DNA from: Enterobacterales bacterium
GTDB taxonomy: Bacteria > Pseudomonadota > Gammaproteobacteria > Enterobacterales > GCA-2746155
DNA length: 64,000 bases
Reading direction: 5' to 3'
Assembly: GCA_965250035.1 (NCBI GenBank)
Contig: OZ252282.1
Span: 657,395 to 721,394, forward strand
The position numbers were made by a program, and so were the translations under genes. Position 1 is the stretch's first letter. Each line of letters starts with the position of its first letter. Below are positions 37,972 to 45,763 of this stretch, one piece after another. The notes below the pieces were generated by a model, which saw only the letters and a list, made by a program, of their open reading frames with translations, had not been told where the DNA came from and did not search any database.

Positions 37972-38130
37972 ATGCTCCAGTTAAGGTTTTTGTCATGGTT
38001 CCGCAATTTTTGCAATATTATACGCTCTAAAAGATGCTGTCGATTGCAAATTAACCGAATTCAAGTGACTCACATAGTATCTCTTTAAGCATCTCATCAA
38101 CTGCTTCGAGAGAACTACTGGGTTACAACT
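37972..38130 (+). repeat. possible long attC-like element (weak)
   Basis: It contains the family core TTGTCATGGTT (37990-38000) and a GTTACAA box (38122-38128). The left boundary is unclear. Confidence 0.3.
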
Positions 38131-38311
38131 TGATTCTTATATGGAGTAATTAAGTTTCTAAGAGATTGAGTGCCTAGTCACGTCCTAAGTAAAATGCTTA
38201 AATAAAAGCACTATAAAATCAATTACCGGACTCACTGACTCACTAGGGAGACTAAGTAATAAAACTGGAATCAGCACTTTTATCATATGCCAACAAAACA
38301 AACAGTGATTA

Positions 38312-38638
38312 ATGTCCGCAAAATCAGCTGTTATTTGTCATACGAGAGTTAATATGCTTAATGAAATAATTCAGAGATTACAATCACTAGATAGCGAATC
38401 TACGAATGGTGGAATATCAAATCATTATTTCGAAGTATCGAATAATGACGTCGAAACAGTTATTTCTGCAAATCGAGAGGGATTAATTTGGTTTGCTTTA
38501 GAAGCATTAAAACTGGCAGAAAATTCTGTAGAAGGTGCTCACTTACACATAGATGAGTATGGAATAGCTGATAAAGTGGATAAAGGATTAGTGTTATCTT
38601 TTAAGAATGCAAACTGGTCTGGTGCAAATGACATATAA
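38312..38638 (+). CDS. small hypothetical cassette ORF
   Basis: 108 aa, with an alternative start at MLNEII (38354). I have a vague memory of similarity to small polymorphic-toxin immunity proteins (…GAHLHIDE…). This is unverified. Confidence 0.45.
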   Translation: MSAKSAVICHTRVNMLNEIIQRLQSLDSESTNGGISNHYFEVSNNDVETVISANREGLIWFALEALKLAENSVEGAHLHIDEYGIADKVDKGLVLSFKNANWSGANDI

Positions 38639-38734
38639 CAAGACGTATCATCGGACACATTTTTGTGTGTCACGGTTTTTGAGAACAAAAACAGCGTCAC
38701 ACTGCGATGTGCCGTTGTACTAGGCGTTACAAAG
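38633..38734 (+). repeat. attC-like imperfect palindromic element
   Basis: It starts ATATAAC, overlapping the stop codon, and ends GGCGTTACAAAG. The centre, TGTCACGGTTTTTGAGAACAAAAACAGCGTCACA, folds as a bulged hairpin. Confidence 0.55.
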
Positions 38735-38918
38735 TTTCCTTTCTTGGTTAAGGATAGGGCCAATCGTGAATGGACATTGTAGACAGGATCCCAGAGTAAT
38801 AGCAAAGTCATTTTAGAATGCGCCGATTTTAGACAGGGAGAAAGTATGCTACCTTAAAGCGTGCTTCACGATATGGAATCAAGCTTCGCAATCGGTTCTT
38901 CACGCATTTAAGGGAGGA

Positions 38919-39036
38919 GGCATGAACCACTAGAATCGTACACTCAGCCGAATACCCTTGCGGCGCATAGGGACAAATCTGTGTAATCAGTCGTCTCTGC
39001 AGACAACAAGTTGGCTGCTGTTCTCAAGCGTTATAT
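38919..39036 (+). repeat. attC-like element of a different sequence type
   Basis: GCATGAAC on the left and AAGCGTTATATGC on the right are inverted repeats. The element ends 4 nt before the next ORF start. The interval 38735-38918 has no convincing ORF. Confidence 0.4.
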
Positions 39037-39039
39037 GCT

Positions 39040-39510
39040 ATGAACTTCTCCATCGTACTACTATCTATTGGAATACTATCTGGACTTTCAGATGCTTACC
39101 GTGATCTTGAGAAAGAATGTATTTCAGATAAAGTCCCCGAGAATTTAATCGAGCTAAAAACTGATTGGTATTCCATTTCAAGTAGACTTAAACGAAGTGC
39201 AGAATCTTTAGGAGGTAGCGCAAAAATATATTCATTCGATAAAGGGATATTTATAAAGCCATCAGCGATGTTTGCTCGCAATCTTATGATTCCTTCTGAT
39301 GAAATAGCAGGTTGTACTATGACGTGTTTTGGTACCTGTGATCAGCACGAGAATTTATTAATACCGAAAACAGGGGCAGACATAAGGATTCAAAGGACTG
39401 ATGAAATAATTGACTGGTGTTGGGAGAACAAAAAGCGATGTACTCTGGACATACAAAACGACAGTGGCTGTACAAAAACTACGAACTTCCAGCGAGAGAA
39501 GAATTTGTAG
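39040..39510 (+). CDS. hypothetical secreted protein (cassette ORF)
   Basis: 156 aa with signal MNFSIVLLSIGILSGLSDA. Confidence 0.5.
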   Translation: MNFSIVLLSIGILSGLSDAYRDLEKECISDKVPENLIELKTDWYSISSRLKRSAESLGGSAKIYSFDKGIFIKPSAMFARNLMIPSDEIAGCTMTCFGTCDQHENLLIPKTGADIRIQRTDEIIDWCWENKKRCTLDIQNDSGCTKTTNFQREKNL

Positions 39511-39583
39511 AAATATTGAGTGACAGAAAAAAATATGATGAACAACTCAAGCAAAGTTGTCTTGGATACTGAGCATATCACAA

Positions 39584-39677
39584 GGCGCTTAACCAGATAC
39601 TTATTAGGCTGTCATGGTTTTTGTTAATAAAAACATCGCCAACCGGCACGTTGCTGGCTAGCTGAGCGTTATGTGCC
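39584..39677 (+). repeat. attC-like imperfect palindromic element
   Basis: GGCGCTTAAC on the left and GTTATGTGCC on the right (8 of 10 complementary). The centre, GGCTGTCATGGTTTTTGTTAATAAAAACATCGCCAACC, is a hairpin with an unpaired G. Confidence 0.6.
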
Positions 39678-43849: not shown

Positions 43850-43934
43850 TGGGCACATATATACTGGCTGAAGGCTATCGCGCAATAAGTAAAACTTATT
43901 GGGAAGCCACAACAGATTATTAAAGCGTTATGAC
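43832..43934 (+). repeat. attC-like element
   Basis: ATACCGCTTTGTTAA on the left, inside the ORF 3' end, against the reverse complement of TTATTAAAGCGTTAT on the right. The element ends GCGTTATGAC directly before the GNAT ATG. Confidence 0.45.
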
Positions 43935-44477
43935 ATGCAGATGATGAGTGAACAACCAAACCTCAAAACAAAGCGATTATTGCTACGACCATTTTCGCTA
44001 CATGATGCATCTGATGTTCAATCACTAGCAGGAGATGCAAACGTAGCAGAAACTACTGCAAGTGTCCCACATCCGTATTTAGATGGCATTGCTGAGGAAT
44101 GGATAAATACCCATCAGCATAACTGGGATAATGGAAGCCAATGTGTGTACGCAATCACTGATATCGGTTCATCTACATTATTTGGAGCTATTTCAATAAT
44201 AGATATAAAAAATCATATTGGTGAAATTGGATACTGGATAGGCTCTCAATATTGGGGAGATGGTTATTGTAGCGAGGCATGTAATGAAATCATAAGGTTT
44301 GGTTTTGAGTGCTTATCACTGACAAAATTGCATGCTCATCATCTATCTCGAAATCCGGCCTCAGGAAAAGTATTATTAAACGCTGGGATGGTTCATAAAC
44401 GGAGTGAAGTGATAACTTTTCCTAGGAATGGAACATTAGAACAAATAGAGTATTATGAGATAGTAAAGACTAAATAA
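43935..44477 (+). CDS. GNAT-family N-acetyltransferase (RimJ/RimL-like)
   Basis: The track ORF starts at 43899 on a non-ATG codon, so I prefer the ATG at 43935 (MQMMSEQPNLKTKRLLLRPFSLHDASDV...). The sequence IGYWIGSQYWGDGY is typical. Confidence 0.75.
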   Translation: MQMMSEQPNLKTKRLLLRPFSLHDASDVQSLAGDANVAETTASVPHPYLDGIAEEWINTHQHNWDNGSQCVYAITDIGSSTLFGAISIIDIKNHIGEIGYWIGSQYWGDGYCSEACNEIIRFGFECLSLTKLHAHHLSRNPASGKVLLNAGMVHKRSEVITFPRNGTLEQIEYYEIVKTK

Positions 44478-44547
44478 TCACAAATTAAGTGTCTTCGAAA
44501 TCTCTTAGTCCGGTGGCATCCGTTAGATGTATTACGTCAGGATAATT

Positions 44548-44766
44548 ATGAAAAGTGATCACAAATCAAATATTAAGAAAATGATGGAAAGTGATAATTT
44601 GAAATGCCCTCAATGTTCCAGCATTAATCTCGATTGTCGTGAGTTAGGTATTAGAGGATCACGTTGGAAAGTCATGTTTGGACGTGAATTACTCAATAAG
44701 GATGAACTGCTCGCATATGCATGTGACGACTGTGGATTCGTTTTTCTAAGACTTAATAAAATTTAG
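44548..44766 (+). CDS. small zinc-ribbon protein
   Basis: CPQC...CDDC. I prefer the ATG at 44548 (MKSDHKS), preceded by a GTTAGAT box at 44513-44519, over the track start at 44527. Confidence 0.45.
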   Translation: MKSDHKSNIKKMMESDNLKCPQCSSINLDCRELGIRGSRWKVMFGRELLNKDELLAYACDDCGFVFLRLNKI

Positions 44767-44848
44767 TCAAGTAAAGGTATATGCCCAGAAGGTTATTTGT
44801 GCTCACAGTATTCGAAATTAACTTATAGATGTTAGGTTCCTATCTTCC

Positions 44849-45247
44849 ATGAGTATGCCTGATTACGAATCATATAGCTTAAGAGATCTTATTGATGTCT
44901 TGAACAACATAGATAGGGATAAATATCCCGATAGAGTTCAAGCTATTGAAAATATCCTGAATGATAATGAGAAATATCTAATCCTTAAAGCACAGCATGA
45001 AGAGATGCTTAAGCAGGAAGAAGCGGACGATTTTGAAGACGAAGAACCAGGCGCCGCTATCGGATTTCGGCTAATTGTTACTGCCATATTGTTGTTGTCT
45101 ACAGGCTCGCTTCATACAGATTTTGGGGCAATTTATATCGAATCTTTGGGTATGAGGATATTTATTTCTGTCCTACTATTACTTGGCTCGCTAGCGTTGA
45201 TTCTTGATGCTAATCGCAAGAATAAGGTAATTCCAAAGAGCAAATGA
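44849..45247 (+). CDS. hypothetical membrane protein
   Basis: 132 aa with two C-terminal TM helices. A GTTAGGT box lies at 44830-44836 upstream. Confidence 0.5.
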   Translation: MSMPDYESYSLRDLIDVLNNIDRDKYPDRVQAIENILNDNEKYLILKAQHEEMLKQEEADDFEDEEPGAAIGFRLIVTAILLLSTGSLHTDFGAIYIESLGMRIFISVLLLLGSLALILDANRKNKVIPKSK

Positions 45248-45352
45248 AACGAATTATGCAACATCACGTATGTGCAAATTAATAGCATAATATAGAACTA
45301 TGATCTCAATGCATAAACCACGATACGTTTATCGAACAACAAGGAAGAACAC

Positions 45353-45694
45353 ATGAAACACACTCGTTTACTATTAATCATTTCACTCATCGCACTTACC
45401 TCAGGTTACAGTGCAGATTCTAATTCTGATGGAGATGAGTCTGTGAGTGTCACTGAGGACAGTAGGACACTTAAAAAAATATCCCATTCAATGATCAAAG
45501 ATTACTTGCGTGCAGTGGGCTGTAAAAAACGCTCCACCAAGGAATTTGTGAAGCGCATCAAAGATGAGACTGAACAAACAGATGAGTATGTATCGGAACA
45601 CTGGAAACTCAAGGCGTGTGGTAAGACACGTAATATAAAGATAGACTTTCATAAAGATGGGAGTAGAGTCTTTATTGAACAATATAGACCATAA
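45353..45694 (+). CDS. hypothetical secreted protein
   Basis: 113 aa with SD AAGGAAG and signal MKHTRLLLIISLIALTSG. Confidence 0.5.
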   Translation: MKHTRLLLIISLIALTSGYSADSNSDGDESVSVTEDSRTLKKISHSMIKDYLRAVGCKKRSTKEFVKRIKDETEQTDEYVSEHWKLKACGKTRNIKIDFHKDGSRVFIEQYRP

Positions 45695-45763
45695 CCGAAA
45701 AACCATGCCGATCGTTGAGGTCGGAAACAAGCCGTGATGTCGTGAACAAATGAAGCAAATGGT

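Follow-up and report, generated by a model that had tools for sequence, protein, structure and literature searches.

A probable integron gene-cassette cluster without a nearby integrase upstream of rsgA in an Enterobacterales bacterium

A run of small open reading frames (ORFs), all on the forward strand and in part separated by imperfect palindromes, fills the space between an Rhs toxin/immunity pair and the rsgA gene in a 64,000-nt stretch of an Enterobacterales genome (contig OZ252282.1; the whole stretch is hereafter the window, and its coordinates are used throughout). The locus raises the question of whether these ORFs are integron gene cassettes, how far such an array would extend, and why no integrase accompanies it. 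The first-pass annotation had read the whole of 37972-45740 as an integron-like cassette array without an integrase. That reading is supported in kind by a covariance model, covariation of the L boxes, complementarity of the cassette ends, the sharing of attC sites with other genes, and tblastn searches, and in extent for the proximal part: the segment of about 38.33-41.69 kb is, with a probability that we put at roughly 85%, an integron gene-cassette cluster without a nearby integrase, i.e., a cluster of attC sites lacking an integron integrase (CALIN), whereas the distal 41.7-45.7 kb contains no detectable attC. Each unit of such a cluster would usually consist of one promoter-less ORF ending in an attC site with R'' (…AAC) and R' (GTT…) ends, L boxes and an extra unpaired base, and the attC, folded as a single strand, would be the substrate of the IntI tyrosine recombinase.

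Six co-oriented units and their attC sites

Six co-oriented units, each with an attC-type site at its end, occupy about 38.33-41.69 kb, as follows.

38330-38336, + strand: start of the first cassette, R'-like GTTATTT, crossover after G38330
38354-38638, + strand: cassette 1 ORF, Imm32-family immunity protein (Pfam PF15566, E 3e-8, above the gathering score)
38633-38732, + strand: attC#1, R'' ATATAAC, R' GTTACAA, about 98 nt, cores intact
38981-39036, + strand: attC#2, short, R'' core AAT (not AAC), R' GTTATAT
39040-39510, + strand: cassette 3 ORF, 156 aa, without family match
39575-39674, + strand: attC#3, R'' ATATCAC (AAC changed to CAC), R' GTTATGT
39696-40415, + strand: cassette 4 ORF, 239-aa membrane protein, without family match
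40439-40493, + strand: attC#4, short, R'' TGATAAC, R' GTTACAA; alternative R'' TTTTAAC at 40416
40509-40967, + strand: cassette 5 ORF, 152 aa, N-terminal membrane anchor
40970-41034, + strand: attC#5, R'' TTGTAAC, R' core mutated to CTTACAA
41051-41584, + strand: cassette 6 ORF, 177 aa
41578-41689, + strand: attC#6 remnant, central core as in attC#1 and attC#3, R boxes degenerate (TAAG; CGCCATAAA)

Since the first cassette starts at 38331, the Imm32 ORF, which is listed from 38312, probably begins at the ATG at 38354, inside the cassette; folding places a small AAC…GTT hairpin ahead of this cassette, at about 38296-38333. The second unit (38727-39030) is a cassette without an ORF, closed by attC#2, and corresponds to the stretch with no convincing ORF that had been noticed after the box at 38724. 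The five GCGTTAY right ends reported at 38724, 39028, 39666, 40485 and 43925 are all located on the + strand, i.e., five in about 5 kb vs about 11.5 expected over the whole 64 kb on both strands. Among the proposed left ends, ATATAAC at 38633 and TTGTAAC at 40970 hold, while GCTTAAC at 39587 is replaced by ATATCAC (39575-39581), based on the covariance-model alignment and on homology to a site of comparison contig L019 (811-914), and TTTTAAC at 40416 gives way to the more probable TGATAAC (40439-40445). (Comparison contigs carry L0xx labels, and the coordinates that follow a label belong to that contig.) The core TGTCAYGGTTTT…AAAAACA.CG.CA, described as common to three elements, indeed occurs in three copies, at 38668, 39610 and 41620, and elsewhere in the window has a single match with one mismatch; attC#6 is a member of direct-repeat family D1, with 60-72% identity. 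The AAC/GTT pair is intact in two of the six sites (#1 and #4), one triplet is mutated in #2, #3 and #5, and both are mutated in #6, so the loss of triplets noted previously is seen as CTT at 41028 and as two degenerate R boxes in the 41.6 kb element. Palindromes had been reported between many of the ORFs; they are found only among these first six units (38.3-41.7 kb) and not in the distal 41.7-45.7 kb.

That these elements are discrete modules is shown by their occurrence on other genes. Core-motif scans, one each over a genome and a metagenome collection, yielded only two true relatives: L004, a 1.9 kb contig of an Alteromonadaceae metagenome-assembled genome (MAG), and L019, a contig of 2.2 kb from a marine metagenome. 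Each of these contigs is a plain array of cassettes, in which every small co-oriented ORF has behind it an imperfect palindrome running from …TAAC to GCGTTA…. attC#1 (38634-38729) shares 96.9% identity over 96 nt with L004 586-491 and about 90% identity with L019 1361-1463; the similarity is bounded exactly by TATAAC and GCGTTA, and the flanks differ just outside. attC#3 is homologous over its whole length to L019 811-914, and attC#2 resembles a short site of the same contig (385-446). According to blastn and tblastx, the attC element alone is common to the window, L004 and L019, and the neighbouring ORFs are unrelated; an element bounded at TAAC…GCGTTA and attached to unrelated ORFs thus behaves as a module that travels with different genes. 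Other core-motif matches in the collections were discarded, being mostly chance, plus an unrelated flavobacterial motif. The latter, found in Muricauda/Flavobacteriaceae sequences (L002, L011, L016-L018, L020 and L021), consists of TTTGTCATGGTTTTT…AAAAACAACGCCAAAACC followed by CCCCTGTCATGGTCTTTG…CAAAGACACC, two tandem hairpins unrelated to the window. As a separate observation, L004 carries at about 1590-1700 (- strand), upstream of its first cassette, two copies of the palindrome TAACGCGCATGCG, about 90 nt apart, which could be part of an attI-like region.

The junctions between the units provide a second type of signature. Because IntI cleaves R' between G and TT, an arrayed cassette begins with TTRRRY…, and this start is complementary to the flank of R'' in the attC that ends the cassette. 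The relation can be read at four boundaries.

38330 to attC#1: start GTTATTTGTC, R'' flank GACATATAAC, 9/10 complementary
attC#2 to attC#3: start GTTATATGC, R'' flank GCATATCAC, 8/9 complementary
attC#3 to attC#4: start GTTATGTGC, R'' flank GCACAT-GA-TAAC, match interrupted by an insertion
attC#4 to attC#5: start GTTACAAGA, R'' flank TCTTGTAAC, 9/9 complementary

At attC#4, GCACAT at 40434-40439 agrees with the cassette start TTATGTGC save for a 3-nt insertion. For a permutation test, the six bases that follow GTTA at each boundary were set against the reverse-complemented six bases that precede TAAC in the following attC. Consecutive partners agree at 23 of 36 positions (6/6 at attC#3 and 4/6 at attC#2) and non-consecutive pairs at 12 of 36 on average; 23 or more matches arise in just 2 of 720 permutations. 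The signature is perfect (9-10 of 10) in L004, L019 and L024, the last being a contig of a relative described below. A generic scan for complementary GTT…/…AAC 10-mers at distances of up to 2.5 kb was set aside as statistically useless, with about one match per kb everywhere, although it nonetheless exposed the boundary at 38330.

Scores of the sites under an attC covariance model

The covariance model used for all conclusions, R2, is a purpose-built substitute for the attC model of IntegronFinder and was trained on six attC sites of L004 and L019 only, with the window sequences excluded. Its structure comprises a 4-bp R helix, a 5-nt spacer, 3 bp, one unpaired base and 5 bp, and the variable centre is treated as a trained insertion. 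R2 recognises attC#1 (38634-38732, +) with 44.0 bits (E 7e-9) and attC#3 (39576-39674, +) with 28.4 bits (E 1e-4); attC#4 (40417-40493, +) is marginal at 14.2 bits (E 0.8 in 64 kb, 0.095 in 8.2 kb), and attC#2 (38982-39036, +) is marginal and weak at 9.6 bits (E 1.7 in 8.2 kb). The matches at attC#1, #3 and #4 lie on the ORF strand, just 3' of ORFs. Outside the array, the best score in the 64 kb window is 13.4 bits, and nothing there is credible. Two - strand AAC…GTT palindromes in or beside the 14772-15110 intergenic region (14935-14972 and 15181-15206) score 11-13 bits (E 0.5-3); with lengths of 26-38 nt they are too short for attC and are probably due to chance.

R2 was also applied to control sequences. 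In two clinical class 1 integrons from a plasmid collection it recovers four of five attC sites, namely those of arr-3, aac(6')-29b, blaVIM-2 and aac(6')-29a, with 27-30 bits, on the gene strand and directly 3' of the cassette, and the fifth, that of aac(6')-Ib, scores 10.8 bits. No R2 match occurs in three rsgA loci of more distant relatives (L035, L036 and L037, 57 kb), which served as a negative control. Two held-out marine sites score 15-17 bits, and the sensitivity of R2 for other attC types is therefore modest, so that marginal scores are no proof of absence. Two further models were not used: R1, which contained the arms only with the centre removed, failed on its own training sites since the long central insert is penalised (on attC#4 it gave 11.7 bits with the left end at 40437), and in R3, built from 12 sites, the central region turned into match columns, which inflated the scores for the family of the window and left the sensitivity unchanged.

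In a 17-site alignment, which was fitted to the model and is hence biased toward its structure, all eight L-box pairs change on both sides, and the TAAC/GTTA helix is 94% paired. Sliding the partners lowers the share of paired cells from 88.9% to 28-42% and the covariation score from 0.42 to 0.04-0.12. The R2 structure, with L boxes, spacer and extra base, fits attC#1, attC#3 and the four class 1 attC sites; on the coding strand, the extra unpaired base is T or G in the window, C in most class 1 controls and G in the blaVIM-2 attC. Folding with unpaired bases in the manner of attC, as had been proposed for these elements, is matched by the extra base in the model structure of attC#1 and #3, and not by fold energies, which are weak for several sites: the hairpin of attC#5 reaches z scores of -2.0 to -2.3, and the fold of attC#2 is not significant. 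Minimum-free-energy folding was dropped as a discriminator, as it performs poorly on such AT-rich imperfect hairpins and gives weak or null z scores for several sites that are attC by alignment.

A family of repetitive extragenic palindromic (REP)-like or terminator-like intergenic repeats unrelated to integrons would likewise consist of intergenic imperfect palindromes, and a simple terminator scan does touch parts of three of the elements. Within the 64 kb, however, the family and all credible model matches are confined to the array; a model built from related sites recognises clinical attC sites; the AAC/GTT core ends carry the cassette complementarity signature; and no T-tracts follow the full hairpins. 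Such a repeat family is accordingly hardly credible as an explanation.

Several observations weigh against the identification of the segment as an integron cassette cluster. The R2 score is significant for two sites only, attC#2 and attC#4 being marginal, and attC#5 and attC#6 are not detected by R2. The model itself is small, with six sites in its training set; it yields rough E-values and is only modestly sensitive to sites that were held out. Several sites do not fold more stably than their shuffled versions (z about 0 for attC#3), and in four of the six the AAC/GTT pair is damaged. The 360 bp of non-coding DNA ahead of the first cassette contain no recognisable attI. Finally, the distal half is without attC, and only orientation, composition and GNAT homologues speak for counting it as part of the array; the demonstrable attC sites cover about 3.4 kb of the 7.8 kb originally claimed.

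Integrase, gene neighbourhood and related arrays

With IntI1 as a query (100% identical to the database IntI1), tblastn over the six frames of the 64 kb window gives a best E of 0.95, so that intI is absent within 30 kb upstream and 18 kb downstream of the array; likewise, Pfam searches reveal no recombinase or integrase in the larger ORFs of the island. None of the traits of a complete integron (intI with its extra domain, an adjacent attI, a Pc promoter) was found in the window, in line with the previous statement that it holds neither intI nor attI. The presence of attC sites with no intI or intI remnant in the window makes the cluster a CALIN, a class which is delimited by at least two attC within 4 kb (Cury et al. 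2016, PMC4889954; see also IntegronFinder 2.0, PMC9024848); here, two strong and two marginal sites together span no more than 1.9 kb, and no integrase is found in 64 kb. In about 2,500 genomes, 279 CALINs have been counted, of which 83% have fewer than six sites and 95% are without a nearby intI pseudogene, and nearly all of their cassettes are of unknown function (PMC4889954). The array of the window resembles them in its sites on one strand, the lack of a nearby intI or intI pseudogene, its handful of cassettes, and cassettes of unknown function without homology to resistance cassettes. It does not differ in kind, and its particular features are the eroded cores, a possible attC-less distal half and the conserved position at rsgA.

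Compared with sedentary chromosomal integrons, such as the Vibrio cholerae superintegron with its VCR-type attC, the array shares a chromosomal, lineage-conserved location, a family of long attC (about 100 nt) on unrelated ORFan cassettes, and a content of GNAT and membrane or secreted proteins, the cassettes of its relatives being of toxin-antitoxin and defence type; unlike them, it has no intI or attI, only about six sites with many mutated cores, and heterogeneous sites (60-72% identity within the family, plus short unrelated types). With class 1 integrons it has in common the site architecture R''-spacer-L''(extra base)…L'-spacer-R', and it differs in lacking resistance genes, intI1 and the 3' conserved segment and in not residing on a transposon or plasmid. 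IntI can also insert cassettes outside att sites, at attG sites, giving isolated cassettes (Loot et al., bioRxiv 10.1101/2022.09.11.507474), which offers a route for cassettes into a chromosome away from the integrase. In the window, by contrast, consecutive cassettes have normal attC-to-attC junctions and the relatives share the site; an old array thus fits better than scattered secondary insertions.

The features that flank the array are listed here.

34700-37663: Rhs toxin gene, proximal flank of the array
37678-37968: small membrane immunity ORF (I2) of the Rhs toxin, just upstream of the array
45764-46816, + strand: rsgA (Pfam RsgA_GTPase), conserved anchor at the distal end of the array

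Between I2 and rsgA, 13 small ORFs are credible, with 79-239 aa and all on the + strand; the strand and small size given in the first-pass annotation (14 ORFs of 73-239 aa) hold. Pfam assigns Imm32 (first ORF), SnoaL-like (weak), DUF2059, XRE-HTH and GNAT, the remaining ORFs being without family; the GNAT, XRE and DUF types named earlier are among these assignments. Nine cassette-region proteins were looked up in a set of about 15 billion, and each of them is a singleton at 90% identity, known from one 3,586,404-bp contig only. The guanine-plus-cytosine (GC) content is 37-38% in the cassette stretch vs 46-52% in the flanking core genes, and the stretch forms the end of a long low-GC region that starts at a tRNA-Ser gene at 8 kb.

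The RsgA of the window has a 100% identical match only in the protein of its own genome and its next relatives at 76-80% identity, the named ones belonging to Pseudohongiellaceae and Pseudomonadales. The contig sets of the nearest relatives (L022/L023, L024/L025 and L034) contain three R2 sites each, all on the rsgA strand, intergenic and upstream of rsgA. These are textbook arrays: that of L024 has RelA/SpoT-like, TIR/ThsB-like and HAD cassettes with three near-identical attC sites (52-71 nt) between them, a last, degenerate attC abuts the rsgA start, and the array begins directly after an efflux-pump gene without intI. The more distant relatives L035-L037 have no array at rsgA. No cassettes are in common between the window and the rsgA arrays of its relatives, and the GC-rich attC type of the relatives has no match in the window. 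Because the nearest relatives carry different cassettes at the same spot upstream of rsgA, the position of the array appears ancestral in the lineage, and cassette sets that are wholly different between lineages point to independent gain and loss after the split. It may be added that in L024 (4785-9990; also in L025), from a Pseudohongiellaceae relative, a RelA/SpoT-like gene and a unit of TIR, ThsB-TIR and a 147-aa protein lie between near-identical attC, and these RelA/SpoT-like and TIR genes look like cassette-borne anti-phage defence.

These arrays also bear on the Rhs locus. The Rhs toxin/immunity pair ends 360 bp before the array, and the intervening stretch is non-coding. Since the relatives have arrays at rsgA without Rhs, rsgA is the conserved neighbour and the Rhs side is specific to this genome; the array does abut the Rhs locus, as had been pointed out, and this adjacency, which had been stressed, appears incidental. 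The ORFs might otherwise be orphan immunity genes left by successive displacement of Rhs C-terminal toxin/immunity modules, with the palindromes incidental, for the array follows a toxin/immunity pair, its first ORF is Imm32, and immunity-gene arrays downstream of Rhs and type VI secretion toxin loci are known (PMC5361080), as are recombinase-associated immunity arrays in Bacteroidales (bioRxiv 10.1101/471110). The likeness extends to small co-oriented genes beside a polymorphic-toxin locus with an immunity-family gene in first place; unlike in those arrays, the boundaries in the window are attC rather than toxin remnants. No RHS or toxin domain is present in any ORF of 38.3-45.7 kb, only one ORF matches an immunity family, the Imm32 gene is bounded by R' and by a 44-bit attC that is found elsewhere with other genes, and the arrays of relatives stand at rsgA without any Rhs, which makes an origin by Rhs displacement very improbable.

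For the cassette cluster, the following history may be proposed. An ancestor of the clade would have acquired an integron or an array with its distal end beside rsgA, and cassettes would have been inserted singly by an integrase at attI or a secondary site. The integrase and attI may once have lain upstream of 38330 and have since been lost, displaced or encoded elsewhere; the Rhs island is now on that side and would be a later neighbour of the array. In integrons, new cassettes enter at the proximal end, and sites that are recognisable on the Rhs-proximal side with only traces at the rsgA end would fit such entry, the distal 4 kb possibly being old cassettes with eroded attC. As four of six cores are mutated, the array is probably largely frozen; cassette 1, and perhaps cassette 4, could, judging from their sequence, still be excised by an integrase in trans. 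A promoter scan found fewer sites than in shuffled sequences and no convincing promoter for the cassettes, which would be expressed by transcription continuing from the Rhs/immunity genes or from internal promoters.

It is unlikely, albeit worth serious consideration, that the cluster is instead a detached part of a complete integron, with IntI elsewhere in the genome, which was split off by Rhs or other island insertions or by rearrangement and whose intact-core cassettes are mobilised in trans. The content at the rsgA site is fully different from that of the relatives, implying turnover after the lineage split, the 97% identity of attC#1 to the Alteromonadaceae MAG copy suggests recent acquisition, and about half of CALINs reside in replicons that encode IntI (PMC4889954). 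Conversely, the 30 kb upstream and the 18 kb downstream are free of intI, the L024 array directly follows the efflux gene without intI, and most cores in the window are mutated. A wider form of this idea seems rather improbable, namely that the rsgA-adjacent array is a lineage-conserved integrase-less platform that is still turning over, as the differing cassette sets and the 97% attC identity might suggest, and that would be serviced in trans by an integrase encoded elsewhere or arriving on a mobile element, with Imm32 as an orphan immunity gene beside Rhs and the cassettes serving as an anti-toxin defence bank.

Additional observations concern the low-GC region upstream. A tRNA-Ser(GCT) gene and a second tRNA-Ser-like copy, detected by ARAGORN only (8032-8124 and 12693-12783), stand on either side of a low-GC insert of 4.6 kb, in which an ORF of 1230 aa has no family match. 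Two Rhs loci (15110-25957 and 29484-37968) follow the same plan: large accessory proteins come first, the Rhs toxin, which has about ten RHS repeats, is next, and a small immunity ORF closes the locus. Between the two loci lies a SMODS-associated NUDIX gene (28212-29027, - strand). The low-GC stretch at 8-46 kb looks like serial island insertion at tRNA-Ser, and no integrase was found for such insertion there.

The distal stretch and the significance of the array

How far the cassette array continues toward rsgA depends on the following stretch.

41690-45763, + strand: distal stretch, seven co-oriented small ORFs including SnoaL-like, DUF2059, XRE and GNAT

Across 41.7-45.7 kb there is no covariance-model match and no significant hairpin. 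Nevertheless, the distal half is like the proximal half in strand, ORF size and GC content. A GCGTTAT stands 2 nt before the GNAT start codon, with an R'-like GTTATGA at 43927-43933, and an R''-like CCATAAC at 45689-45695 overlaps the last stop codon. The three nearest placeable homologues of the GNAT (49-62% identity) all lie inside co-oriented small-ORF arrays; two of the three contigs contain R2 matches, and one of these sites ends just before the homologous gene. We consider the odds roughly even that the distal half consists of eroded cassettes.

The competing view, that only 38.3-41.7 kb is a cassette array and that the distal 4 kb is ordinary horizontally acquired island DNA which never consisted of cassettes, has a little less than an even chance. 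It is favoured by the missing model matches and hairpins, by one ORF pair that overlaps in an operon-like manner (42163-42169), and by an XRE regulator with its own operator-like inverted repeat (43099-43137). It has to contend with the strand, ORF size and GC content shared with the proximal half, the GCGTTAT before the GNAT gene, the nearest GNAT homologues in co-oriented arrays (two with attC matches), and the CCATAAC over the last stop codon, relatives having a degenerate terminal attC that abuts rsgA. The repeat itself is a perfect 10-bp inverted repeat, GTCAAAGTTA…TAACTTTGAC, with arms at 43099-43108 and 43128-43137, 75 nt upstream of the XRE-family gene (43211), and from its sequence and position may be the operator of this regulator.

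As a cassette cluster, the locus adds one more integrase-less array to a class in which hundreds are catalogued, and documents it in a poorly studied marine gammaproteobacterial lineage whose nearest named relatives are Pseudohongiellaceae. The order of its sites, from intact to undetectable, illustrates the decay of attC and the turning of cassette genes into ordinary chromosomal genes, and the common position at rsgA with differing cassettes provides a natural system for the renewal of integrase-less arrays. If the array were indeed a platform still serviced in trans, integron cassettes would act as a bank of defences against the toxins of competitors.

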